NCBI GenBank assembly: GCA_963795085.1
Contig: CAWCFX010000002.1
Coordinates: 128,001-192,000 of the forward strand
Reading direction: 5' to 3'
Length of the DNA stretch: 64,000 nucleotides
From: an uncultured Gemmatimonadales bacterium
GTDB lineage: Bacteria > Gemmatimonadota > Gemmatimonadetes > Gemmatimonadales > GWC2-71-9
A program made the translations under genes and the position numbers. How positions within the stretch are numbered: the stretch's first letter is position 1; each line of letters opens with the position of its first letter. The notes under the pieces were generated by a model. It made no database searches. It was given only the letters and a program-made list of their open reading frames with translations, and was not told the DNA's origin. Below are positions 1,170 to 12,997 of this stretch, in pieces.

Positions 1170-2663
1170 ATGAGCGCCCTTTCGCGCCGGGTCTTCGTCA
1201 TCTCCGATCTTCACCTGGGCGGGGTGTACCCCAACCCGCCCGGCTCGGGGGCCCGGGGCTTTCGGATCTGTACTCACGCCCCCGATGTCGCCGCGTTCAT
1301 CGGCCGGCTGGCGGCCGAACCCGTCTCCCCGCCGGTGGAACTGGTCATCAACGGCGACCTCGTGGACTTCCTCGCCGAGGCGGACAGCCCCGGCGGATGG
1401 AGCCCGTTCACTGCCGATCCGGACCTGGCCGTCCAGAAGTTCCAGGCAATCGCCGCCCGCGACCAGGTGGTGTTCGACGCGCTGAAGCAGTTCCTCGCCC
1501 GGGGCCACCGGCTGGTGCTGACGCTGGGAAACCATGACCTGGAGCTTTCCTTCCCCGCAGTGCGCCAGGCCCTCCGCGACCTGATCGGCGCGACCGGCGC
1601 CGCGGATTTCGAGTTCTTTCACGACGGTGAGGCCTACCTCGTGGGGGATGCCCTGATTGAGCACGGCAACCGGTACGACGTGTGGAACATGGTGGATTAC
1701 GACGCGCTGCGGCACATCCGGTCGCTGCAGTCCCGGCGGCAGCCGGTCCCCTCGGAACAGCTGTTCCATCCCCCGGCCGGCAGCTTCATGGTGGCCGAGG
1801 TCATCAATCCCATCAAGACGTCCTACGCGTTCATCGACCTGCTCAAGCCGGAAACCGGGGCGACCGTTCCCCTGGTTCTCGCCCTCGAGCCCGGGTACCG
1901 GTCCCTGCTGGCGAAGGCCGCCAAGTTCCGGATCCAGGGCCGGGAACACCGGCTGGCGGGAGCGGCCATGCCGGCCTTCGGGGGCGATATCAGCTCCGGC
2001 ATGAGCGGCTCCACCATGGATTTCGGATCCGATATCTCGGCCTCTCCCGGGAGCGGGGGTAAGGACGAGCTGGACCTGGCGCTGGAGCAGGTGCTGGGTG
2101 CCGACAGCGCCGGGTTCTCCAGTGGCCTGGCCGCCCTGGCGCCGCCCGGAGGGCAGATCGGCAGCGATATCTCCTCCGGCGGCCTGATCGACCGCGGGCT
2201 CAGCCTGCTCCGCCTGCTCACCGCCAAGGCGCACAGCGACAGCGCAGGCCGGCTGCCCCTGCTGCTCACCGCCTTTCAGCCGCTCCTCAAGGACAACTCG
2301 TTCGATCCCGCGACGGAAACGGCGCCCGAGTATATCAACGCGGCCCGCGACCTGGCCCAGCACGGGATCCGGCACGTGGTCTTCGGCCACACCCACATGC
2401 CCAAGCGGATCGGCCTGCCTTCCGGCGGGTGGTACCTCAACAGCGGGACCTGGGCCGATGTGCTGCAGTTCCCCCGGGAGATCCTGTCCGGCACCCGCGA
2501 CGAGGCGCTGGCCAAGCTGCAGGAGTTTACCCAGCTGATGATCAAGGGAGACTTCTCGGAGTGGACCATCTTTCAGCCGACCTACGTGCGGCTCGACGTC
2601 GGGGGCGACGGCGCGGTGGCGAATGCCGAACTCTGCCGCTACACCGAGGCCGGTCCGCTATGA
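1170..2663 (+). CDS. Calcineurin-like metallophosphoesterase with large internal insertion
   Basis: Motifs SDLHLG, NGDLVD, GNHD, EHG, GHTH and YLNSGTW. Confidence 0.88.
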   Translation: MSALSRRVFVISDLHLGGVYPNPPGSGARGFRICTHAPDVAAFIGRLAAEPVSPPVELVINGDLVDFLAEADSPGGWSPFTADPDLAVQKFQAIAARDQVVFDALKQFLARGHRLVLTLGNHDLELSFPAVRQALRDLIGATGAADFEFFHDGEAYLVGDALIEHGNRYDVWNMVDYDALRHIRSLQSRRQPVPSEQLFHPPAGSFMVAEVINPIKTSYAFIDLLKPETGATVPLVLALEPGYRSLLAKAAKFRIQGREHRLAGAAMPAFGGDISSGMSGSTMDFGSDISASPGSGGKDELDLALEQVLGADSAGFSSGLAALAPPGGQIGSDISSGGLIDRGLSLLRLLTAKAHSDSAGRLPLLLTAFQPLLKDNSFDPATETAPEYINAARDLAQHGIRHVVFGHTHMPKRIGLPSGGWYLNSGTWADVLQFPREILSGTRDEALAKLQEFTQLMIKGDFSEWTIFQPTYVRLDVGGDGAVANAELCRYTEAGPL

Positions 2664-5206
2664 ACCGGGAGACCCGGGAGGCGATTGCCCGGATCGAGAT
2701 TGTCGATGCCGCGGGCCAGGTCATCAGCCGGGGAACCGGGACTCTGGTCGGTCCCGGGCTGGTGCTGACCGCGCTCCACGTGGTGGCGGATCGCCGCGCG
2801 GACCCGCCGCAACCGCTGCCCGGCCGGATCCGGCTGGTGTTCCCCACGGGCCAGCGGGATGCCGAGATTCACGGTACCCTGATGGACGCCAGGGCGGACT
2901 GGGTCCTGCTCCGGTGCGAGGAGCTTCCCAATGTTCCGCCGGTGCCGCTGGGCCGGCTCACCCAGGCGGGGGTGGACTGGGAAACCTATGGCTTTCCGGA
3001 TGCCAATCCCCGTGATGGCATGATCCAGACCGGGCGGGTCGAGGCCTGGGATGGAGAACTGGAAGGACAAGCGGCGCTGCAACTCTTCAGCATGGAAGCC
3101 GCCGCGGGCAATGGCGCGCCGGTGAAAGGCCTTTCCGGCGCGCCGGTGTTCGTGAACGAGTTTTTGGTCGGGCACATGCGGTTTGCCCTCATGCAGGACG
3201 GCCGCACCGTGGCCGGCACCCTCTACGCCTGCCCGGTCTCCACGCCGGAGACCGCCAGCGCCGGCCTGCTTGCCGTCGCCAACGTTCCATTCCGCCGCTC
3301 GACGACCACCGCCGTGGTGGAGGAGATGCGGGAAACCGAGCGGGGCACCCGGCGCATCGTCCTCGCGGGCCTGCTGGTGCTGGCGCTGCTGATCGGGGGG
3401 GCCGTCTTCTACTTCTCCCGCCCGCCCCGGCCGCCGAGCCCGGCGATCCGTACCATCGCCGTGCTGCCGCTCCGCAACATGACCGTGGACTCGGGCCGAA
3501 GCGCCGCGCTCGCCGGCGGCATCCGCGCGATGGTGACGACCGAACTGCGCCGCATCAGTTCCCTGCGGGTCATCGATCTGGATAACCTCAACATCGGCAC
3601 CCGGGGCACCGGCGCCACCCAGGGACCGGATCTCGTGGCCGCCGGGGTCACCGCCGAGGCCGCCCTGCAGAGCGAGGTGCTGCTGGAGGGCGGGGAAGTG
3701 AGCATCCGGCTCGCCCTGCTGCAGACCGTGGGGCGCACCAATGCCTGGAGCCAGGTCTGGTCCGACACCTACAAGGTTCATGGCAATACCGCCTTCCAGA
3801 TCCAGCAGGACGTGGCCCGGGAGGTGGTGGCCGAGTTGAGTGCCCGGTTGACCTCGCGGGACAGCCTGATGCTGGCCACCGCCCACACCAGCGACTCGGT
3901 GGCCGCGGAGTTTTTCATCCTGGGCAAGGACCTGCTGCGACGGGCCTACTTCGACGCCGACGCCGCGCGCCGGGCGGCGGTGATGTTCAGCCGCGCGGTG
4001 GACCGGGATCCTGGATTTGCCCTGGCCTATGCCTGGCTCTCCGAGGCGCACTCCCTGCTGCATTTCCTCGGCGCCGACCAGCGGGAGAGCCGGGGCGAGC
4101 AGGCCCTGGCCGCGGCCGACACCGCGCTGGCGCTCAATCCCGACCTCCCCGAGGGTCACCTCGCCCTCGGCGCCTACTACTACCGGGTCCTGAACCTGCC
4201 CGACCAGGCATTGCGCGAACTCAGGACCGCATCCCGGGCCCTGCCCAACAGTGCGTCCGCGCTGCTGCTCACCGGCCTGGTGTACCGGCGGCAGGACAGC
4301 TGGGCGGAGGCCGCGTGCGCGCTGCAGGCTGCGTCCGACCTGGAGCCCGGCAACTGGGGGCCGGCCTACTACGCCGGCGAGACGTTGCTCTTCATCCGGG
4401 ACTACGCCCAGGCGGCGCGGTACCTCGAGCGCGCCATCGCGGACTCCATCGACGCGTCGGGGATGGACCAGCGGGCCCGGGCCTTCGTGGCGCGGGCGCT
4501 GCTCCTGGTGGCCGCCAACGGCGACACTCTCCAAGCGCGTGAGGCGGTGGGGCAGATGTTCACCTGGTTCAGCAAGCCGGCGGTGCTGGCGGCCCTGAGC
4601 CACGACGAGTACCGGCCCCTCCTCGGCCTGGTCGACTCGCCGGTGCTCGATTCGCTGTTCGAAACGACTCCAATCACCGGCGACGGCGATACCACGGACT
4701 ACTTCCTCACCCGGGCCATCCTGGCCCGGCGGGGAAGCCAGCCGCTGATCAGCCGGGGCTTCTACGAGGTCGCGCTGGCCCGGGTGAACCAGGAGATCAC
4801 CCAGAACCCGCTGGCGGTACAGGCCTTCAGCGACCGGGCTGCCGCGCTGATGGGCCTGGGCCGTCACGCCGAGGCGCGCGCGAGCGCGGCCCGCGCGATG
4901 GATCTGCTGAACCACGGCGGGTTGGTCATGGGGTCGCGCACCGCGGCGGGGGTCGCCGTGGAATGGGTGCATCTCCAGACGCTGATCCAGGCCGGCGATC
5001 GGCGGGCCGCCATCGCCAACCTGCGGCATTCCCTGGAGGACCCCGGTATCCTCTCCCCCGATTGGATCCAGGCGGATCCCTCCTTTGCGCCGGTGGTCAG
5101 TGCGCCGGGGTACAAGGAACTCAAACACACCTTCTTTCAGCGTATTTCGTATCCGGTGCTTCGCCATGGGCCCGATCCCCGGGCCGCAGCGTGTCCGGCT
5201 CCCTGA
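2660..5206 (+). CDS. Trypsin-like serine protease - TM - TolB-like - TPR protein
   Basis: ATGA overlap with the upstream stop. Triad motifs TALHVV, ADWVLL and GLSGAPV; TM IVLAGLLVLALLIGGAVFYF; TIAVLPLRNM (TolB-like N-domain of kinase/cyclase receptors); several TPR-like repeats (ALALNPDLPEGHLALG). Confidence 0.85.
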   Translation: MNRETREAIARIEIVDAAGQVISRGTGTLVGPGLVLTALHVVADRRADPPQPLPGRIRLVFPTGQRDAEIHGTLMDARADWVLLRCEELPNVPPVPLGRLTQAGVDWETYGFPDANPRDGMIQTGRVEAWDGELEGQAALQLFSMEAAAGNGAPVKGLSGAPVFVNEFLVGHMRFALMQDGRTVAGTLYACPVSTPETASAGLLAVANVPFRRSTTTAVVEEMRETERGTRRIVLAGLLVLALLIGGAVFYFSRPPRPPSPAIRTIAVLPLRNMTVDSGRSAALAGGIRAMVTTELRRISSLRVIDLDNLNIGTRGTGATQGPDLVAAGVTAEAALQSEVLLEGGEVSIRLALLQTVGRTNAWSQVWSDTYKVHGNTAFQIQQDVAREVVAELSARLTSRDSLMLATAHTSDSVAAEFFILGKDLLRRAYFDADAARRAAVMFSRAVDRDPGFALAYAWLSEAHSLLHFLGADQRESRGEQALAAADTALALNPDLPEGHLALGAYYYRVLNLPDQALRELRTASRALPNSASALLLTGLVYRRQDSWAEAACALQAASDLEPGNWGPAYYAGETLLFIRDYAQAARYLERAIADSIDASGMDQRARAFVARALLLVAANGDTLQAREAVGQMFTWFSKPAVLAALSHDEYRPLLGLVDSPVLDSLFETTPITGDGDTTDYFLTRAILARRGSQPLISRGFYEVALARVNQEITQNPLAVQAFSDRAAALMGLGRHAEARASAARAMDLLNHGGLVMGSRTAAGVAVEWVHLQTLIQAGDRRAAIANLRHSLEDPGILSPDWIQADPSFAPVVSAPGYKELKHTFFQRISYPVLRHGPDPRAAACPAP

Positions 5207-5219
5207 TCCAGGCGGATTT

Positions 5220-8200
5220 ATGGCTCGACTCTCCAACCATCTCGGCGATCTGCAGGATCACTACGCCGTCGTCGTCATCGGTTCCGGATACGGCGCGGCG
5301 ATCACCGCGTCCCGGCTGGCGCGGGCCGGACAGAAGGTCTGCCTGCTGGAACGCGGGAAGGAGTTCCAGCCCGGGGAGTACCCCGATACCGTGATCGAAG
5401 CCGGCGAGGAACTCCAGTCCAACACGCCGCTGGGGCAGGTGGGGTCCCGCAGCGGGTTGTATGAGTTCCACGTGAACGACGACATCAATGTCTTCAAGGG
5501 GTGCGGCCTCGGCGGCACCTCGCTCGTCAATGCCAACGTCGCGCTCCGGGCCGAGGACCGGGTCTTTGAGGACACCCGCTGGCCGGCGGAGTTCCGCCAG
5601 GACCGGGAGGGGCTTGCCGCCGGGTACCGGCATGCGGAGGAGATGCTCAAGCCGGCGCCCTACCCGGAGGACTGGCCGGCCCTGCCCAAGCTCCGCGCCC
5701 AGGAGACCTCGGCGCGCGCCATGAAGGAGCGGATCTACCGGACCCCCATCAACGTGAACTTCACCGTGAATGGCCCCAACCACGTGGGGGTGAACCAGCA
5801 GCCCTGTAACCTGTGCGGCGACTGCGTCACCGGGTGCAATCACGGGGCCAAGAACACCCTGCTCATGAACTACCTGCCGGATGCCGGGAACCACGGCGCC
5901 CACATTTTTACCGAGGTGGACGTGCGTTTCATCGCGCGGGAGGAGACCGGGTGGGTGGTGCACTTCCAGCCGCTCGATACCGGCCGCGAGAAGTTCGAGG
6001 CTCCGACCATGTTCGTCCGCGCCGACATCGTGGTGCTGGGCGCCGGTGCCCTTGGGTCCAGTGAGATCCTGCTCCGGTCGAGGGATCGGGGCCTGGACCT
6101 CTCGCCCGCCCTGGGGGGACGGTTCACCGGCAACGGGGACGTGCTCGCCTTTGGCTACCAGACCAAGGACGTGGTGGAGGGGTGCGGGTTCGGCCACCTC
6201 AACCCCAGCGGGCGGGCACCGGTGGGCCCCTGCATTTCCAGCGTGATCGACATGCGGGAGCAGCCGGTCCTCGACGACGGCATGGTCCTGGAAGAAGGGT
6301 CGATTCCTGGCGCGCTGGCGCCGATCGTGCCGGGGACGCTGGCTTTCTCGTCCACGGTGGCGGGGGCGCCCGAGCGGTCGGGCCTGCTGCAGGCCGTCAA
6401 GCGGTTCGGCGAGAAGGTCGCCAGCCTCGTCGAAGGTGCGCACCACGGGTCGGCCAATCGCACCCAGACCTACCTGGTCATGACTCACGACGATGGGTCG
6501 GGCCAGTTTACGCTGGAAAATGATCGGCTCCGCATCCATTGGCCGGGGGTCGGGTCCCAGCCGATCTTCGCCAAAGTGGAAGCCAGGCTGAAGGCCGCCG
6601 CGGAAGCCCTGGGCGGGATCTACGTCCGGAATCCGACCTGGAGCAAGCTCTCCAAGCACCCGCTGGTGACCGTGCATCCACTGGGCGGGTGCGTCATGGG
6701 CGAGACCGGCGCGGCCGGGGTGGTGAATCACAAGGGCCAGGTCTTCCGCGGCACCGGGACGGAGGTGCATCCCGGCCTGTACGTCAACGATGGCGCGGTG
6801 ATCCCCCGTTCCCTCGGCGTCAATCCTCTGCTGACGATCTCGGCGGTGGCCGAGCGGGCGGTGGCCCTGCTCGCCCGGGACCGGAACTGGACCATCGATT
6901 ATGCCCCCACCTCGGTCCCGGCCGCCACCAACGGACAGCCCCGGACCGGAATTCAGTTCACCGAGACCATGCGGGGCTGGCTCTCCACCCGGGTGCTCGA
7001 TGATTACGCGGAGGCGGCCAAGGCGGGTGAGGCGGAAGGGTCCAGCTTCGCCTTCACCCTTACCATCCGGTCCGACGACCTGGAAGCCATGCTGTCCACG
7101 CCGGAGCACGCCGCCAGCATCGTAGGCACGGTGGACGCTCCGGCGCTCTCGCCCCACCCGCTCACGGTAACCGGGGGAACATTTCAGCTCTTCGCCGCGG
7201 ACCCGGAGCATGTGCGGGGCCGGCGGATGTGGTACCGCATGCGGCTCACCTCGGAGGATGGGCAGCGCTTTGCCTTCGAGGGGTACAAGCTGGTCAACGA
7301 CGATCATGGCCCCGACGTCTGGCGGGACACCAGTACGCTCTATATCACGGTGCGGCGGGGGGAAGGCGAGGATGCCCCGGTCCTGGGGAAGGGGATGCTG
7401 CACATCAAGCCGGCCGATTTCGCGGTCCAGATGACCACGCTCAAGGTGCTCAATGCGCCCGGTCGGCTGGAACGGCTGTCGGCCACCCTGCGATTCGGGA
7501 AGTTTTTTGCCGGCTCGCTCTGGAAGGTGTACGGGTCAGTGCTGGAACGGTCCAGCTGGCTGGCCCCCGACGCGGCACCCCGCAAACGGCGGCCGCTTCG
7601 CCTGGGCCCGCCGGAGGTGCATCCGTTCATGACCGATGACGGCGTGGAGCTGCGGCTCACCCGCTTCAAGGGCGGCACCCGGGGTCCGGTGATTCTCGCT
7701 CCCGGCTTCGGCACCTCCGGGCTGGCCTATACCATCGATACCAACGAGACCAATCTCCCGGAGTTTCTCTACGCGCGGGAGTACGATGTCTGGGTGCTCG
7801 ACTACCGGGCCAGCCCGGAGCTGGCGTCCAGCGCCAACCAGTTCACCGTGGACGACATCGCGACGCTCGACTGGCCCGCCGCGGTAGCCCAGGTGCGCCG
7901 GGTCTCCGGGGCGCCCAGTGTCCAGGTGGTGGGGCATTGCGTGGGCAGTCTCTCCTTCCTGATGGCGATGCTGGCCGGTATGACCGGGGTGCGCGGAGCG
8001 GTCTGTTCGGCGTTGACCCTGTTTCCCATCGCCCCGGCCCTGACCGACGTGAAGGCGGCCATGCGGCTGGCATCCCTGCTCGACGCCGCCGGCGATCATC
8101 TCTGGCAGACCGATGCCGACTCCCACTCCTTCGTGGAGAGGGCCCTGGACAAGTTCATGCGGATCTATCCCAGCCATGAAGGGTGTACCAGTCCGGTGTG

Positions 8201-8609
8201 CCGGCGGATCCTGTTCCTCTACGGCGACGTCTTCCGCCACGCCAACCTCAACGATCCAACCCACGAGGCCATCCACGAGATGTTCGGGCGGGCCAACCTG
8301 ACGACCCTCAAGCACCTGACCCGGATGATCCAGAAAGGTCACGTGGTGGACCGGCTGGGACAGGACGTGTATCTCCCCAACGCCAGCCGGTTGGCCCTCC
8401 CGATTTCCTTCATCCACGGGGACATCAACCACATGTTCCTGCCCGAAGGCAGCGCGAAGACATACGAGTTTCTCCGGGAGAAGAACGGGCCGCAGTGGTA
8501 CACCCGGACGGTGATTCCCGGTTATGCCCACATGGACTGTTTCATCGGGCGGGACGCAGCGAAGGACGTGTACCCGGTCGTGGCACAGGAGCTGGACAAA
8601 CAGAACTGA
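5220..8609 (+). CDS. GMC oxidoreductase (cholesterol oxidase-like) fused to alpha/beta hydrolase
   Basis: FAD motif VVIGSGYGA, GCGLGGTSLVNAN, CNLCGDCVTGC, VTVHPLGGC and GVNPLLTISAVAER; C-terminal hydrolase with DVWVLDYR, GHCVG and GYAHMD. Confidence 0.88.
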   Translation: MARLSNHLGDLQDHYAVVVIGSGYGAAITASRLARAGQKVCLLERGKEFQPGEYPDTVIEAGEELQSNTPLGQVGSRSGLYEFHVNDDINVFKGCGLGGTSLVNANVALRAEDRVFEDTRWPAEFRQDREGLAAGYRHAEEMLKPAPYPEDWPALPKLRAQETSARAMKERIYRTPINVNFTVNGPNHVGVNQQPCNLCGDCVTGCNHGAKNTLLMNYLPDAGNHGAHIFTEVDVRFIAREETGWVVHFQPLDTGREKFEAPTMFVRADIVVLGAGALGSSEILLRSRDRGLDLSPALGGRFTGNGDVLAFGYQTKDVVEGCGFGHLNPSGRAPVGPCISSVIDMREQPVLDDGMVLEEGSIPGALAPIVPGTLAFSSTVAGAPERSGLLQAVKRFGEKVASLVEGAHHGSANRTQTYLVMTHDDGSGQFTLENDRLRIHWPGVGSQPIFAKVEARLKAAAEALGGIYVRNPTWSKLSKHPLVTVHPLGGCVMGETGAAGVVNHKGQVFRGTGTEVHPGLYVNDGAVIPRSLGVNPLLTISAVAERAVALLARDRNWTIDYAPTSVPAATNGQPRTGIQFTETMRGWLSTRVLDDYAEAAKAGEAEGSSFAFTLTIRSDDLEAMLSTPEHAASIVGTVDAPALSPHPLTVTGGTFQLFAADPEHVRGRRMWYRMRLTSEDGQRFAFEGYKLVNDDHGPDVWRDTSTLYITVRRGEGEDAPVLGKGMLHIKPADFAVQMTTLKVLNAPGRLERLSATLRFGKFFAGSLWKVYGSVLERSSWLAPDAAPRKRRPLRLGPPEVHPFMTDDGVELRLTRFKGGTRGPVILAPGFGTSGLAYTIDTNETNLPEFLYAREYDVWVLDYRASPELASSANQFTVDDIATLDWPAAVAQVRRVSGAPSVQVVGHCVGSLSFLMAMLAGMTGVRGAVCSALTLFPIAPALTDVKAAMRLASLLDAAGDHLWQTDADSHSFVERALDKFMRIYPSHEGCTSPVCRRILFLYGDVFRHANLNDPTHEAIHEMFGRANLTTLKHLTRMIQKGHVVDRLGQDVYLPNASRLALPISFIHGDINHMFLPEGSAKTYEFLREKNGPQWYTRTVIPGYAHMDCFIGRDAAKDVYPVVAQELDKQN

Positions 8610-8664
8610 CGCGCCGGCGCCACAGCTTCTGCCATGGGGGGGGCGCGGGTATCTTTCGACCCTC

Positions 8665-10524
8665 ATGGACCAAAACCCGACGGAATGCCCGCGCTGCAGC
8701 CGACCGGTCACGCCCGGCATCCGGGAGTGTCCGGCCTGCGGCTTTGACCTCGGGTGGGACCAGGGAATGGTCGCGACCGCCGCGCTCGGATCGGGCGCAT
8801 TCATGACCACCGCCAGCCTGTCGCCGCTGGCGGCGCGCCCCGCCGACCTTCTGCGTGAGATCGTCAGCGGGGAATACGAAATCCTCGGCGAACTGGGCCG
8901 GGGCGGGATGGCCGCTGTCTTCCTCGCCCGGGAGATCAGCCTTGACCGCAAGGTCGCCATCAAGCTGATCTCGCCGTCCTTCCTGGAAGGGTCCGAAGCG
9001 GTCGAGCGATTCAAGCGGGAAGCCCGCACCGCCGCCTCGCTCAGCCACCCCGGCGTCATACCGATCTACGGCGTCCGGGACACCGACCGGGCCCTCTTTT
9101 TCATCATGAAGTACGTGCACGGCCGTACTCTCGCGTCCATCATCCGGAGCGCGGGGCCCCTTCCCGTCACCCAGGCCCGGGCCGTGCTCGTCGCCGTGGC
9201 GCATGCCCTCGACTACGCCCACCGCAACAATGTGATTCACCGGGACATCAAACCCGGCAATATCATGGTGGATACCGAGGGACACGTGATGGTGACCGAC
9301 TTCGGAATCGCCAAGGTCGTCGATTCCGAGGGCCTGACCATGACCGGCCGCACCATCGGCACCCCCGCCTACATGAGTCCCGAATCCTGCTCCGGTCGCG
9401 AGGTCACCGGCGCCAGCGACCAGTACGCCCTCGGCGTGGTCGGCTATGAGCTGCTGTCGGGCCGGAACCCGTTCCTGGCCGATACTTCGGTCGGCATCAT
9501 GTACGCCCACGTCCATGAGGCACCCCAGCCGATCGGCGAATTACGCCCTGACTGCCCGCCCGAGATGGCCGCCGCCATCATGCGTATGATCGAAAAAAAC
9601 CCGGCGGCCCGGTTCGCCACCCTCAAGGACGCCGCCCAGGCCATCCAGGGCAGTGCGGGGATCGATGAAATGGCGGTCGTTTCCCTGGGTGCGCTCGCCG
9701 CCAGCCGGGGCCAGGCCGCCGACTCATCCACGCCGACCCCGGTGCCACGGCGCACGCCCATCAGCACCGGGACCGCCGCCCGGCGAACCCGGACATCGTC
9801 CATCGCCTGGGTGGTCGCGGGGACCCTGCTGGTGCTGGGCAGCGTGGCGGTGGGGCTCAAGCACTTCTGGGACCGGGGACGCACCGCCGCCCCTGCCGTT
9901 GACGGCGCGCTCACCAATGCCCGGGTCTTGGCGATCACGGCCCGGGCCCGGGCCAGCGCGGCGGGGCTTGCCCCGGCCCTCCTCGCCCCCGGCGATTCCA
10001 TCATGAGCGCGGCCCAGGTCATGGCCGATTCCGGCCGGAATGCGGAAGCGGCGGCCCTCTTCGCCACCGCTGCGTCGCTCTGGGATTCGATTCCCCCCGC
10101 GCCGGCGCGGACGGCGGCCCCGGTCGAGGCGCCCGGTGCCGACCGGCCGGGCCCGGCGCCGGTTGTCGAGCCTGATACACTCGCCGGCGCGGCGGGCGAT
10201 TCGGCGGCGATTGTGAAGTATTACCGGGAACTGGCAGTGGGAATCCAGGCGCGGCAACTCCGGGAAGTCACCCGCCTGTTGCCCAACCTCGACCGGTTCG
10301 CCGAGGATGCCTGGCGCCGGCTGTTCGAAGACCGGAACGTGGAGAACATCGAGGCCAACTACTCGGTGACCAGCCTGACCCGGACGGACAACCAGGTGCA
10401 CGCCCGGGTGGTGGAGAACCTGACCGTCACCAAGGGCGGAAGAGCCAACGCGAAACAGCGGACCTTCTTCGCCACCCTCACGATGGGCCCCCAGGGGTGG
10501 CGGCAGATCCGGGAAGACAAGTGA
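8665..10524 (+). CDS. Ser/Thr protein kinase with N-terminal Zn ribbon, TM and C-terminal extracytoplasmic domain
   Basis: CPRC..CPAC; LGRGGMAAV, VAIK, HRDIKPGN, DFG and GTPAYMSPE; TM IAWVVAGTLLVLGSVAVGL. Confidence 0.92.
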   Translation: MDQNPTECPRCSRPVTPGIRECPACGFDLGWDQGMVATAALGSGAFMTTASLSPLAARPADLLREIVSGEYEILGELGRGGMAAVFLAREISLDRKVAIKLISPSFLEGSEAVERFKREARTAASLSHPGVIPIYGVRDTDRALFFIMKYVHGRTLASIIRSAGPLPVTQARAVLVAVAHALDYAHRNNVIHRDIKPGNIMVDTEGHVMVTDFGIAKVVDSEGLTMTGRTIGTPAYMSPESCSGREVTGASDQYALGVVGYELLSGRNPFLADTSVGIMYAHVHEAPQPIGELRPDCPPEMAAAIMRMIEKNPAARFATLKDAAQAIQGSAGIDEMAVVSLGALAASRGQAADSSTPTPVPRRTPISTGTAARRTRTSSIAWVVAGTLLVLGSVAVGLKHFWDRGRTAAPAVDGALTNARVLAITARARASAAGLAPALLAPGDSIMSAAQVMADSGRNAEAAALFATAASLWDSIPPAPARTAAPVEAPGADRPGPAPVVEPDTLAGAAGDSAAIVKYYRELAVGIQARQLREVTRLLPNLDRFAEDAWRRLFEDRNVENIEANYSVTSLTRTDNQVHARVVENLTVTKGGRANAKQRTFFATLTMGPQGWRQIREDK

Positions 10525-10552
10525 AAGCTGAGGTCCGCGGCCGGCTCGCCGC

Positions 10553-11332
10553 TTAGCGGTTCTTGAAGTCCGGCTTCCGCTTCTCCAGGAACGCCTTCAC
10601 CCCTTCCTGCTTGTCCCCGCTGGCAAAGGCCACGCCGAAAAGCGTGGTCTCCTGGCGCAGCCCCTCGTCCAGCGGCGTTCGCAGCGACGCGCGTACCGCT
10701 TCCTTGATCAGCTGCAGCGCGACCGGGCTCTTCTCCGCGATGGCGCCCGCGAGGCTCAAGACCCGGTCGCGCAGGTGATCCGCCGGCACCACCTCGTCAA
10801 CCAGTCCCATTCGCAGCGCATCAGCGGCGTCGACCAGGTCTCCGGTGAACAGCAGCTTGTAGGCGTTCCCGGCGCCCACCAGGCGGGGCAGGCGCTGGGT
10901 ACCGCCGCCCCCGGGAATGATCCCGAGGTTGACCTCCGGCTGGCCGAGCCGGGCCGTGTCGGCCGCGATCCGGATATCGCAGGCCATGGCCAGCTCGCAG
11001 CCGCCGCCCAGCGCGAAACCGTTGATCATCGCGATCACCGGCTTGGGGAACGCTTCGATGGCATCGAACACCGACGGACCCCGCATCACCCGGAACTGGT
11101 CCACCGGGGTGCGGCCTTCAAATTCTCCGATGTCGGCCCCCGCAATGAACGCCTTGTCCCCGGCACCGGTGATCACCACTACCCGGACCCGGTCGTCCGG
11201 CCGCAGCGCCTCCAGCGCCTCCAGCAGGGCGGACCGGGTGGCGGCATTGAGCGCATTCCGCTTGTCGGGGCGGTTGATGGTGAGCACGGCCACGCGGTTG
11301 GCAATGTCGCGGAGAACCAGCGAATCAGTCAT
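10553..11332 (-). CDS. Enoyl-CoA hydratase/isomerase
   Basis: NRPDKRNAL, AFIAGADI, ALGGGCELAMACD and GQPEVNLGIIPGGGGTQRLPR. Confidence 0.93.
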   Translation of the reverse strand: MTDSLVLRDIANRVAVLTINRPDKRNALNAATRSALLEALEALRPDDRVRVVVITGAGDKAFIAGADIGEFEGRTPVDQFRVMRGPSVFDAIEAFPKPVIAMINGFALGGGCELAMACDIRIAADTARLGQPEVNLGIIPGGGGTQRLPRLVGAGNAYKLLFTGDLVDAADALRMGLVDEVVPADHLRDRVLSLAGAIAEKSPVALQLIKEAVRASLRTPLDEGLRQETTLFGVAFASGDKQEGVKAFLEKRKPDFKNR

Positions 11333-11439
11333 GGCCTTGTCCTGGGTCAATGGGCACCCCGGCGGCGCACTGCGGGGGTGCGGAGCCGGCGGGAGCCGAC
11401 AGAATATGGTTGGTTGTCATGCTGCTGCGCCGGCCTGAG

Positions 11440-12288
11440 TCAGGGCCACGGGTAGAACCCCTCGCCGCTCTTCTTGCCCAGCCGGCCCTCGGCCACCATC
11501 TGGCGCATCAGGGCGGGCGGGGCATACTGGGCTCCGCCCAGCGTGGCGTGGAGGTACTCCGCGATCCGGAGCCGGACATCCAGACCGACCACGTCGGTCA
11601 GCCGCAACGGGCCCATCGGATGGTTGTAGCCCAGCTCCATGGCCCGGTCGATGTCCGCGGCACTGGCCACTCCCTGCTCGACCATCCGGATGGCCTCCAG
11701 CCCCAGCACGACCCCCAGCCGGCTGGAGGCGAACCCCGGCGAGTCGCGGACCACCACCGGCTCCTTGCCGAGGGCCGCGACGACGGCGAGAGCGTCGGCG
11801 CGGGTGTGCGCGTCGGCGCCGTCATGCAGGACGATCTCCACCAGCCGCATCAGGTGCACCGGGTTGAAGAAATGGAGGCCGACCAGCCGGGTGGGGTGGG
11901 GCAGCCCGTCGGCGAGTGCGCTCACCGACAGGGAGGAGGTGTTGGTGGCCAGCAGCGCCGCGTCGGTGACGACCCGCGCCGCCTCCCCCAGCACCGCCCG
12001 CTTGACGGCCAGGTCCTCGACGACCGCCTCGATGACCAGGTCCACGTTGCGGCAGGCCTCGGGGATCGAATCGGCGGGGTGGATGCGGCCCCGGATGGCT
12101 TCCCGGTCCTCGGGGGTCATCTTGCCGCGGCTCACCGCGCCATCCAGGGTTCTGGCCATCCCGGCCATCGCGCCGGGGAGCGCGTCCGGCCGTGCATCGG
12201 TCAGCCGGGTCTCCCAGCCGGCGGTGGCGGCGGCCTGGGCGATGCCGGCGCCCATGGTGCCGGCGCCGATCACGGCGACCCGGTGCAC
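11440..12288 (-). CDS. 3-hydroxyacyl-CoA dehydrogenase (PaaH/Hbd-like)
   Basis: VAVIGAGTMGAGIA, EAVVEDL, ATNTSSL, GLHFFNP and HPMGPL. GTG start is tentative. Confidence 0.92.
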   Translation of the reverse strand: MHRVAVIGAGTMGAGIAQAAATAGWETRLTDARPDALPGAMAGMARTLDGAVSRGKMTPEDREAIRGRIHPADSIPEACRNVDLVIEAVVEDLAVKRAVLGEAARVVTDAALLATNTSSLSVSALADGLPHPTRLVGLHFFNPVHLMRLVEIVLHDGADAHTRADALAVVAALGKEPVVVRDSPGFASSRLGVVLGLEAIRMVEQGVASAADIDRAMELGYNHPMGPLRLTDVVGLDVRLRIAEYLHATLGGAQYAPPALMRQMVAEGRLGKKSGEGFYPWP

Positions 12289-12316
12289 CTGGAAGGGTGA
12301 GGTGGGATCGAGGGGG

Positions 12317-12997
12317 TCACGACCGGGTCTCCAGCGTGGCCCTGAGCCGGTCAGGGTGGTTGCCGCAGAGGCCGTCCACGCCCAGCCCGGCCAGCCGCAG
12401 CGCGTCCTGGGGCTGGTTGACGGTCCAGGCGATGAGGCGATATCCCCGTGCGTGAACGGCATCCACGATAGCCCGGTCGATCAGCCGCTGGTCCTGCCAG
12501 AGCGTGCGGGCCCCGGCGGCATCGAGCAGCGCGACGGCGTCCAGCGGGTAGGATGACAGCAGGATGCCGCGGTCGAGGCCCGGGCGCCGGGTGCCCAGCC
12601 GGGCGATGATCCGGTGGTCGAAGCTGTGCACGGCGTAGCGGGCCGGTGCCGGCCCTTCGTCCAGCACGGCGAGCAATGCTTCGTCAAAGGCCGGGGCCAG
12701 CGTCTTGATCTCGACGTACACGTCAACCTCTCCCAGCAGCCTCAGGACCTCGGGCAGCGTCGGCACGGTCTCGCCGTTGGGCAGGCGGTAGGCCATCACA
12801 TCGGTGTAGGCCAAATGGCCGATCGGCCCCAGCCCGGGCAGCTCGGCATCGTGGTGGACCAGGATGATGCCGTCTCCAGTGGAATGCACGTCGAGCTCGA
12901 CACCATCGGCGCCGAGCTCGAGAGCGCGGGAGAAAGCGGCGCGGGAGTTCTCGAACTCCCGGCCGCTGGCCCCGCGGTGGGCGATGATCGCGGTCAG
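12317..12997 (-). CDS. Glycerophosphodiester phosphodiesterase
   Basis: The frame extends upstream of the ORF-track start to IIAHRGASGREFENSRAAFSRALELGADGVELDVH; also EIK, SFD, AWTVN and GVDGLCGNHPD. Start inferred at CTG 12997. Confidence 0.85.
   Translation of the reverse strand: MTAIIAHRGASGREFENSRAAFSRALELGADGVELDVHSTGDGIILVHHDAELPGLGPIGHLAYTDVMAYRLPNGETVPTLPEVLRLLGEVDVYVEIKTLAPAFDEALLAVLDEGPAPARYAVHSFDHRIIARLGTRRPGLDRGILLSSYPLDAVALLDAAGARTLWQDQRLIDRAIVDAVHARGYRLIAWTVNQPQDALRLAGLGVDGLCGNHPDRLRATLETRS

Follow-up and report, generated by a model that had tools for sequence, protein, structure and literature searches.

Do four genes that lie close together on one strand form one system, or does a smaller unit act within them? 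The question is raised by a 64,000-nucleotide (nt) stretch of DNA from an uncultured Gemmatimonadales bacterium (contig CAWCFX010000002.1, positions 128,001 to 192,000; below, the window), in which four co-directional open reading frames (ORFs), here called A, B, C and D, occupy positions 1170 to 10524 of the forward (+) strand. An earlier note had proposed them as one protease-triggered signalling or conflict operon made of a metallophosphoesterase (MPE), a trypsin receptor, a GMC oxidase/hydrolase and a Ser/Thr kinase, and its description of the layout stands in every coordinate. When the junctions were checked against the sequence, the start ATG of B (2660-5206) overlapped the TGA of A (gctATGAacc, the ATGA at 2660-2663), 13 nt separated B from C (start ATG at 5220), 55 nt separated C from D (start ATG at 8665) and opposite-strand genes flanked the cluster on both sides. 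Pfam agrees with its domain calls apart from the TolB-like part of B, the hydrolase match being sub-threshold. As judged from sequence comparison, we find that the real unit of this locus is a two-gene protease-effector module made of A and B, in which A is the predicted latent effector; C appears to be a facultative companion and D a resident neighbour outside the module.

Linkage of the MPE and receptor-protease genes

Across 80 loci around A homologues, which were taken from species-representative genomes and searched with domain-sized pieces of the four window proteins, a homologue of the B protease domain lies within 5 kb of A in 59, and in 52 of those within 400 bp. When counting is restricted to the 64 well-flanked loci (a complete A gene with at least 1.5 kb on each side), the protease domain is adjacent in 48, within 5 kb in seven and not found in nine. 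The protease gene mostly lies directly downstream of A in the same orientation, at a distance of -14 to about 300 bp, and three loci have the order protease, TPR protein, A. The earlier proposal was to fall if homologues failed to co-occur in other genomes; those of A and of the B protease do co-occur across many phyla, the titles of the A-homologue loci naming Acidobacteriota, Thermoanaerobaculia, Gemmatimonadota, Alpha-, Beta- and Gammaproteobacteria, Myxococcota, Verrucomicrobia, Elusimicrobia and Rokubacteria. These neighbourhoods support the view that A and B are a conserved, widespread functional pair.

The partners of A have only the N-terminal protease domain in common (30-60% identical to that of B), and the last 590 residues of B lack conservation across the 80 loci. 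The commonest sensor behind the protease domain is nSTAND1 with a WD40 array, in proteins of about 1400 residues. Bradyrhizobium and other Alphaproteobacteria carry EAD1 sensors, accompanied by a third gene weakly matching nSTAND1 (below the cut-off) and pentapeptide repeats, and further loci have nSTAND1-TPR, AAA_16-TPR or nSTAND1-Amidase_2 sensors or, in Gemmatimonadaceae, membrane-helix forms. The protease domain of B is closer to Thermoanaerobaculia nSTAND1-WD40 forms (59-60% identity) than to three Gemmatimonadota-titled forms (46-51%; L021, L042 and L052), and sensors therefore appear to have been exchanged. Effector and protease seem to share an evolutionary history, since distances among the MPEs correlate with those among their protease domains at a Spearman coefficient of 0.707 over 39 pairs (a value reached by 0 of 2000 label permutations, without a species-tree control). 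One partner, a protein of 2074 residues (L080:11570-17794), joins the trypsin domain to a periplasmic binding domain, to three kinase domains and to two domains of the di-haem cytochrome c peroxidase type (CCP_MauG).

In a remoter branch of MPEs (37-38% identity over the N-terminal half), seen on a Methylobacterium plasmid of 37.6 kb and on a Paraburkholderia replicon, the next gene encodes a caspase-like protease of the CHAT type. The fold of the partner can change while it remains a protease. The Methylobacterium plasmid (L181, NZ_CP099612.1) also carries, at 9186-12818, a second MPE gene beside an ORC-CDC6-like ATPase gene (PF24389, E 1.4e-95) and a hypothetical gene, another candidate MPE-based system. 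Divergently upstream of the Paraburkholderia pair, a weak match to SLATT_2, a two-transmembrane (2TM) effector, was seen (L182, AP028202.1, 5379-6452).

Gene A (1170-2663) encodes an MPE of 497 residues with an LpxH-like core and a mostly helical insert of about 220 residues. It matches PF00149 (Metallophos) in Pfam (E 2.5e-8, 35 bits against a cut-off of 21.5) and has all of the MPE motifs (DxH, GD, GNH[DE], H and GHxH); across 76 sequences the metal-binding residues D13, H15, N121, H122, H165, H407 and H409 do not vary, and at least 90% of these sequences also have D63. No hydrophobic segment is present by the Kyte-Doolittle scale. Homologues are stand-alone proteins of about 470-530 residues with about 50% identity between distant phyla, and the family numbers 1013 clusters (50% identity) at E<=1e-30 among 1.84 billion representatives. 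The AlphaFold2 model of A (predicted local distance difference test, pLDDT, 86.8; predicted template-modelling score, pTM, 0.88) is confident except at residues 273-296 and 332-338. When its fold was compared with known structures, the best 23 chains were all LpxH (Z 15.6-17.3, 207-223 residues aligned, 18-21% identity), the best LpxH row having Z 17.3 and a root-mean-square deviation (rmsd) of 3.9 with 211 of 229 residues aligned at 21% identity. PolD, SbcD, Mre11 and polymerase B-subunits formed the next class at Z 12-13.5, and no PPP-type protein phosphatase was among the best 50 rows. It was the fold comparison only that placed A, the sequence profile of the MPE family having no match in the PDB at E<=1.

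The likeness to LpxH extends to the insert, which lies between the motif-IV His and the GHTH motif, where we take LpxH to carry its lipid-binding lid. The differences are that A is twice the size of LpxH, matches no NCBIfam family and hence no LpxH model, and had no match at E<=1e-10 in any of 60 genomes from its genus, family or order (at least 90% complete in 48 cases); the LpxH model TIGR01854 does have a match in the genome of the window, at a different place (C3:27772-28383, 54 bits, below the cut-off). For these reasons we rejected A as a housekeeping LpxH. The locus that does match TIGR01854 may be the true LpxH-type enzyme of the organism; LpxI_C was not found in this genome, which is 93% complete.

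Gene B encodes a cytoplasmic trypsin-like serine protease domain at its N-terminus (residues 1-215, window 2660-3304), a transmembrane helix (residues ~233-252, 3356-3415) and an extracytoplasmic sensor (residues 262-848, 3443-5206) in which a module resembling the CadC periplasmic domain is followed by TPR repeats. The start at 2660 agrees with the N-termini of 38 homologues. Pfam places PF13365 (Trypsin_2) at residues 25-164 (E 4.3e-11, 44.2 bits against a cut-off of 27.6), and the triad of His40, Asp80 and Ser159, the last being the serine of GLSG, is invariant in 39 sequences. By their sequences, A and B both look catalytically intact. The hydrophobic segment has a Kyte-Doolittle 19-residue maximum of 2.64 and is the sole one that reaches 1.8. 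For the modelled sensor (AlphaFold2, pLDDT 88.8), the top Foldseek match was the CadC periplasmic domain 3LY7 (E 1.7e-8, TM 0.76 on the target, rmsd 3.7 over 322 columns), and generic TPR proteins came after it; Pfam finds TPR repeats here and NCBIfam a weak CadC match. Of the TolB-like/TPR sensor described before, the TPR part stands and the TolB-like part has no Pfam match, though JGI names homologues 'TolB-like protein'; the fold is nearest to CadC. Thirteen database proteins have the full architecture of B, with sensor parts 48-67% identical, and remoter relatives of the sensor (also 'TolB-like protein' at JGI) are fused to kinases, SARP and wHTH regulators and adenylate cyclases.

Going by these models, B is a ToxR/CadC-style single-pass receptor with a protease as its cytoplasmic output. 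It shares with CadC and ToxR the cytoplasmic N-terminal output, the one membrane helix and the periplasmic CadC-like sensor, and it differs from them in having a serine protease as output, where they have a winged-helix DNA-binding domain, and in the further TPR repeats that extend its sensor. When PADLOC models were searched, the protease domain matched the protease parts of Avs1b and LmuA best. Since the match to Avs1b is confined to residues 23-176 (31-36 bits, where the NCBIfam cut-off is 1500), with no MBL (metallo-beta-lactamase) gene nearby and no NTPase in B, the locus was rejected as AVAST type 1 (Avs1a/b/c). A second, distantly related Trypsin_2 domain is found elsewhere in the same genome (C6:34705-35220, L184), inside a frame of 808 residues (E 4.2e-8 with the protease profile, 3.9e-20 with Pfam).

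Loop motifs and the parallel with trypsin-MBL pairs

Three G-x-D-I-S motifs sit in the low-confidence loops of the A model (pLDDT below 50), which are its sole long loops of this kind. Motif 1 (G-G-D-I-S, residues 271-275, window 1980-1994) and motif 2 (G-S-D-I-S, residues 286-290, 2025-2039) share the first disordered loop, where they place Ile274 and Ile289, and motif 3 (G-S-D-I-S, residues 331-335, 2160-2174) places Ile334 in the second; all three are predicted cleavage sites. Among the 76 aligned sequences, the Asp and Ile are kept in 62 and 66 at motif 1, in 56 and 46 at motif 2 and in 59 and 67 at motif 3. An initial pattern, G.D[IVM], was too strict (0 in 19 of 48 adjacent loci), and DI[SGA][SAT] and a looser form were chosen after viewing the inserts. 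Of 57 trypsin-linked MPEs, 42 contain DI[SGA][SAT] in the insert and 35 contain it there two or more times (shuffled sequences have 0.04 per sequence), as against one of eight MPEs without a nearby trypsin and neither of the two CHAT-linked MPEs. The D-I-S motifs thus track the presence of a trypsin partner, and such partner-specific loop motifs are hard to explain unless A itself is cut.

This arrangement closely resembles that of trypsin-MBL pairs, as these are described in the available portions of the literature. The trypsin domain of HamA, and Avs1b, cut an MBL pro-nuclease whose active site is blocked by two disordered insertions, and they do so after conserved isoleucines within these insertions (Tuck et al. 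2025, PMC12799240). More than 1500 trypsin-MBL pairs have been counted, in which diverse defence proteins begin with the trypsin domain; the two partners co-evolve with a rho of 0.677, and the cleavage motifs are KSS and, in the long-form MBL, IS(G)N with Ile at P1 (Huang et al., bioRxiv 10.1101/2025.09.03.673762). The pairs (HamM/Avs1a) occur in Hachiman, AVAST, short Argonaute and other defence systems (PMC12799240; bioRxiv 10.1101/2025.09.03.673762; Guo et al. 2026, bioRxiv 10.64898/2026.08.25.746987), and double cleavage has been shown both for the MBL and for a small alpha/beta-hydrolase, a protease-activated zymogen (Evans et al., bioRxiv 10.1101/2025.11.14.688446 / PMC12642450). Like A and B, these pairs combine an N-terminal trypsin on interchangeable sensors with a constant metal-dependent hydrolase encoded next door, the two evolve congruently (rho 0.677 for trypsin and MBL, 0.707 for A and B), and the disordered insertions of the effector carry conserved Ile motifs; B also scores best against Avs1b. 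They differ from A and B in the effector, which here is a calcineurin-like MPE near LpxH with three motifs instead of an MBL nuclease with two, and in the sensor, which in the window is a transmembrane CadC-like periplasmic receptor as opposed to a cytosolic STAND, helicase or Argonaute protein; A and B are also known from sequence and models only. Because the anatomy of the trypsin-MBL module is thus combined with a Metallophos/LpxH-like effector, we regard A-B as a parallel to the trypsin-MBL pairs and not as a member.

The remark of the earlier note that it knew of no described system with this gene set has to be qualified. A 'metallophosphoesterase (MPE)-like enzyme' is one of ten protease-associated effector families listed by Evans et al. 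(bioRxiv 10.1101/2025.11.14.688446), who count it as a predicted defence effector, cite Krishnan et al. 2020 for it and leave it uncharacterised, and the mechanism has been shown for the parallel trypsin-MBL pair. In a literature search for a trypsin-MPE pair, an MPE beside proteases was named only by Evans et al. among the portions of text available, and the terms phosphoesterase, calcineurin and metallophos do not occur in those of Huang et al. or Tuck et al. A-B may quite possibly be the MPE module of that list. The sensor contexts, the LpxH-like fold and the D-I-S motifs given for the MPE were obtained in the present analysis.

A wider context is given by the conflict systems of bacteria with a multicellular habit, in which trypsin and caspase effector domains, EADs and nSTAND1 were described by Kaur et al. 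(2020, PMC7159879; 2021, PMC8195603). The A-homologue loci likewise use nSTAND1, WD40/TPR arrays and EAD1 with trypsin; the B of the window differs in having no NTPase, and an MPE dyad is not among the partners described in the portions of those papers available, where the peptidase partners named are Trypco1/2, NucA and an alpha/beta-hydrolase and calcineurin-like domains are read as nucleotide phosphodiesterases (PMC7159879, PMC8195603).

Proposed mechanism and competing readings

The sensor-activated protease with a latent effector that the earlier note envisaged is present here in its anatomy: a variable sensor, a constant protease, a constant effector and motifs in disordered loops of that effector. 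We consider it reasonably probable, judging from sequence, models and the analogy with trypsin-MBL pairs, that the B protease cuts A and thereby activates it. The periplasmic CadC-like/TPR domain of B would sense an envelope or extracellular cue, which, probably via receptor clustering, would activate the cytoplasmic trypsin-like domain. The protease would then cut A in the disordered loops of its lid-like insert, after Ile274, Ile289 and/or Ile334, and these cuts would open or release part of the insert and relieve autoinhibition. Active A would most likely act on a metabolite linked to a nucleotide or a lipid and hydrolyse its pyrophosphate or phosphodiester bond, pyrophosphate-linked nucleotide-lipid and nucleotide-sugar compounds being the likeliest; given the SbcD/Mre11-level similarity and the MBL precedent, DNA may be an alternative substrate. 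The cell would then stop growing or die, in the manner of abortive-infection-type conflict systems. Phage defence as the outcome, rather than another conflict or stress response, is less probable than the activation step itself.

Linkage, sensor swapping, intact catalytic residues, fold, motif placement and the motif-partner correlation are shown by the sequences and models, and cleavage, activation, substrate, trigger and phenotype (toxicity or an effect on phage) are inferred. Several observations weigh against this account. Nine of the 64 well-flanked loci are without trypsin; in Bacteroidota, two MPE homologues (L062 and L079; 38-41% identity, no D-I-S motifs) are followed by PD40-repeat and POTRA-domain proteins, and another homologue (L063) by a PAP2 lipid phosphatase. 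These loci imply that the MPE family also has a protease-independent life, maybe in ordinary envelope or lipid metabolism, and the sequences of this protease-free branch point to an envelope or lipid role. The strict motif is missing in 15 of 57 trypsin-linked MPEs, the looser pattern being present in 51 of 57. As the loci are phylogenetically related, the motif counts overstate independence, and the same non-independence applies to the mirror-tree correlation of A with the protease domain. The window has neither a defence island nor a mobile element around the pair, its flanks being metabolic (a TonB receptor and fatty-acid/phenylacetate catabolism); PADLOC calls no system, and a CadC-like periplasmic sensor suits environmental signalling at least as well as phage sensing. 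A complex prediction in which the protease domain and the MPE were both supplied as alignments (score 0.00, mark 0.32, without controls) is evidence neither way.

The alternative that survives best, although we think it improbable, is non-lethal envelope signalling, in which a CadC-like receptor-protease responding to pH, a metabolite or envelope stress would tune an LpxH-like lipid or nucleotide-sugar pyrophosphatase by regulated proteolysis and, together with C, would remodel (outer-)membrane lipids. Much of what has been described fits such a role: the sensor fold is nearest to the CadC periplasmic domain, homologous sensors drive outputs usual in signalling (kinases, SARP/wHTH regulators and cyclases), LpxH has the fold closest to that of the MPE, Bacteroidota homologues of which lie beside PAP2, POTRA or PD40 genes, a cholesterol-oxidase-like/hydrolase fusion recurs near A in differing gene orders and sometimes split, and the genes flanking the window cluster are metabolic. 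It is opposed by the architecture of most other loci, where the protease is fused to STAND NTPases with WD40/TPR or to EAD1, forms that Kaur et al., in the text available, assign to conflict systems, by the patchy distribution of A-B, which was not found in the 60 relatives, and by the independence of C, which lacks A-B in 77 of 80 of its own loci. In a more speculative possibility, which we rate somewhat lower still, B would read a periplasmic or cell-surface cue with its CadC-like domain and, by cuts after the isoleucines of the three D-I-S loops, license an LpxH-like pyrophosphatase that kills or arrests the cell by destroying nucleotide-linked lipid or envelope precursors rather than DNA, an envelope-sensing, lipid-targeting branch of proteolysis-gated immunity with the C fusion as a second lipid arm in some lineages.

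The MPE might also be a regulator or co-enzyme rather than the substrate of B, for example a protein phosphatase opposing Ser/Thr kinases or a nucleotide-signal phosphodiesterase, with an unlinked third protein as the target of the protease. We regard this as unlikely. Ser/Thr kinase genes, often with AAA_16 and/or TPR, do stand divergently beside A in L005, L032, L033, L053 and L071 (compare L132), the L080 partner fuses the protease to three kinase domains, and Kaur et al., in the portions available, take conflict-system calcineurin-like domains as nucleotide phosphodiesterases. Kinases are, however, very common in these phyla and some adjacency is expected by chance; the fold of A is nearest to LpxH and then to nuclease- and polymerase-associated MPEs, with no PPP-type phosphatase among the best 50 rows, and a nucleotide cyclase as conserved partner was not seen in the window or in the loci examined. 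The partner-specific loop motifs would likewise be hard to explain if the MPE were not cut.

The kinase genes themselves vary. They lie directly beside the MPE gene, and Pfam finds a C-terminal TPR in that of L005 and AAA_16 with TPR in that of L032. No trypsin is present within 5 kb in L032 and L053, L033 has the protease too, and in L005 and L071 the sequence ends close downstream of A. In L132, where A comes after a GMC gene, a kinase-AAA_16 gene is divergently upstream of the latter. The A-B module may have a kinase-sensor variant.

Genes C and D and the genomic context

Gene C (5220-8609) encodes 1129 residues in which a cholesterol-oxidase-like GMC flavoenzyme, a middle region and an alpha/beta-hydrolase are joined, without a hydrophobic segment. 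Pfam matches are GMC_oxred_N and GMC_oxred_C and, weakly, Abhydrolase_1 (24.1 bits, cut-off 25.8). Streptomyces cholesterol oxidases come closest to the GMC part among PDB sequences (E 2.5e-24). The family-level GMC matches hold; because the cholesterol oxidase equivalog NF058674 scores 144.8 bits where its cut-off is 850, C was rejected as a ChoA/B equivalog. The hydrolase domain (window 7920-8609, residues ~900-1129) has weak matches to class I and class III polyhydroxyalkanoate (PHA) synthases in NCBIfam, and an invariant C907 occupies the nucleophile position in G-H-C-V-G (H906-C907), where a lipase would have Ser. The sequence suggests acyl-thioester (PhaC-like) chemistry fused to a cholesterol-oxidase-like flavoenzyme.

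In 13 of the 80 A-loci, C is present no more than 10 kb from A, whether intact, split or permuted; at least five arrangements are seen, in Gemmatimonadota, Acidobacteriota, Elusimicrobia, Rokubacteria, Beta- and Gammaproteobacteria, and a single contig contributes both L042 and L043. By a rough estimate, which was not computed, this proximity is far above random placement in a genome of a few Mb. The reciprocal count reads differently, A or the protease being present in only 3 of 80 metagenome loci around C homologues. The C family (5480 matches among 8000 candidates scored) is larger than the A family and shows 55-60% identity across phyla whether A-linked or not; none of the 60 relatives yielded the full C fusion, only the GMC part being matched, at 31-37% identity, in seven of them. 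With 77 of 80 C-loci lacking both A and the protease, we rejected C as an obligate member of the module, and it is at most an optional co-effector or pathway partner. Among the loci with C near A, L043 (8323-9987) has a RoxA-like cytochrome c protein of about 560 residues between its GMC-hydrolase and MPE genes, representing a cluster seen in six loci. L042 and L043 (JBDSTA010000367.1, 323-21837 and 35592-57106 reversed) are the identical locus twice, inverted, on a 57-kb contig, with the same match coordinates and scores, and are either a large inverted repeat or an assembly artefact.

Gene D (8665-10524) encodes an N-terminal zinc ribbon, a Hanks-type Ser/Thr kinase domain (Pkinase in Pfam, E 1e-49) and a transmembrane segment. 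Many PADLOC models of the PD-T4-6 defence kinase match the kinase domain (E 4e-90), and generic PknB-type models of NCBIfam do so equally. In two genomes of the same genus (G004 and G001), an amidohydrolase-family gene, a match to D (tblastx segments of 55-85% identity) and a 3-hydroxyacyl-CoA dehydrogenase gene follow one another in this order, and nothing corresponding to A, B or C is found at the syntenic site; on the contig of the window, the amidohydrolase-family gene is at window positions -6953 to -6120. Because D is kept at the syntenic place in two genomes without A, B and C, we consider it a resident gene and rejected it as a member of the system, in keeping with the earlier suspicion that the kinase was an unrelated neighbour, and its conservation there argues for a resident kinase.

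Relative to these two genomes, a stretch of about 14.8 kb (C2:121880-136665, window ~-6120 to 8665; L180) is specific to the genome studied here and holds a Ser/Thr kinase-TPR (STK-TPR) gene (L180:2185-4425), an ORF of 467-484 residues, a TonB-dependent receptor gene, A, B and C. The distribution of A-B is that of an accessory element, the pair being absent from the syntenic site in both genomes and A not being found in the 60 relatives. The G+C content is about 65-72% across the region and the composition is without a break. On the opposite strand, the four genes are flanked by the TonB-dependent receptor gene (2-916) and an enoyl-CoA hydratase gene (10553-11350), and beyond D the hydratase is followed by 3-hydroxyacyl-CoA dehydrogenase and PaaA-like genes of fatty-acid/phenylacetate catabolism. 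The hydratase gene is also missing between kinase and dehydrogenase in G004 and G001. PADLOC, which the earlier note had suggested as a check for a defence system, called none from the four window proteins, giving domain-level matches only and no family for A or C.

Of the single four-gene operon first proposed, the A-B pair therefore stands (adjacent in 48 of 64 loci), and C (13 of 80, reciprocally 3 of 80) and D (by synteny) do not. That all four act as one system, with the protease processing both MPE and oxidase-hydrolase and the kinase taking part, we judge quite improbable, a little more so than a regulatory role of the MPE. It would account for the tight spacing on a common strand, for the 13 of 80 A-loci with C or split forms in varied arrangements across phyla, and for A, B and C all lying within the stretch missing from two same-genus genomes (A and the C fusion also not being found in the 60 relatives), and it has a precedent in the separate alpha/beta-hydrolase family that is a proven protease-activated zymogen, according to the available text of Evans et al. 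Against it stand the conservation of D at its syntenic site without A-C, the 77 of 80 C-loci without A and protease, the 55-60% identity of C across phyla, linked or not, and a search for a partner-specific motif in C that had no success. Co-transcription of the four genes was inferred from spacing alone, as a simple scan of the region gave nothing either way: no sigma-70-like promoter was found, and the six terminator-like sites were not enriched (mean 4.2 in shuffles). Although no promoter or terminator signal defines an operon, the reading that the four genes are merely unrelated neighbours on one strand is very improbable, being effectively refuted for A-B by adjacency in 48 of 64 well-flanked loci across many phyla and by shared evolutionary history, and stands for D.

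The four-gene cluster should accordingly not be read as one system. What it contains would be, on the models, a parallel within the established class of proteolysis-gated effectors, notable for its periplasmic sensor and non-nuclease-like effector. The MPE partner has only been named in a list in print, and its family is sizeable and spread over soil phyla. Testable handles are offered by the catalytic serine of B, by the three isoleucines at which A may be cut and by the hypothesis of an LpxH-like substrate. If the coupling to a CadC-like sensor is real, protease-gated effectors would be driven by extracytoplasmic signals too, besides cytosolic STAND, helicase and Argonaute sensors.

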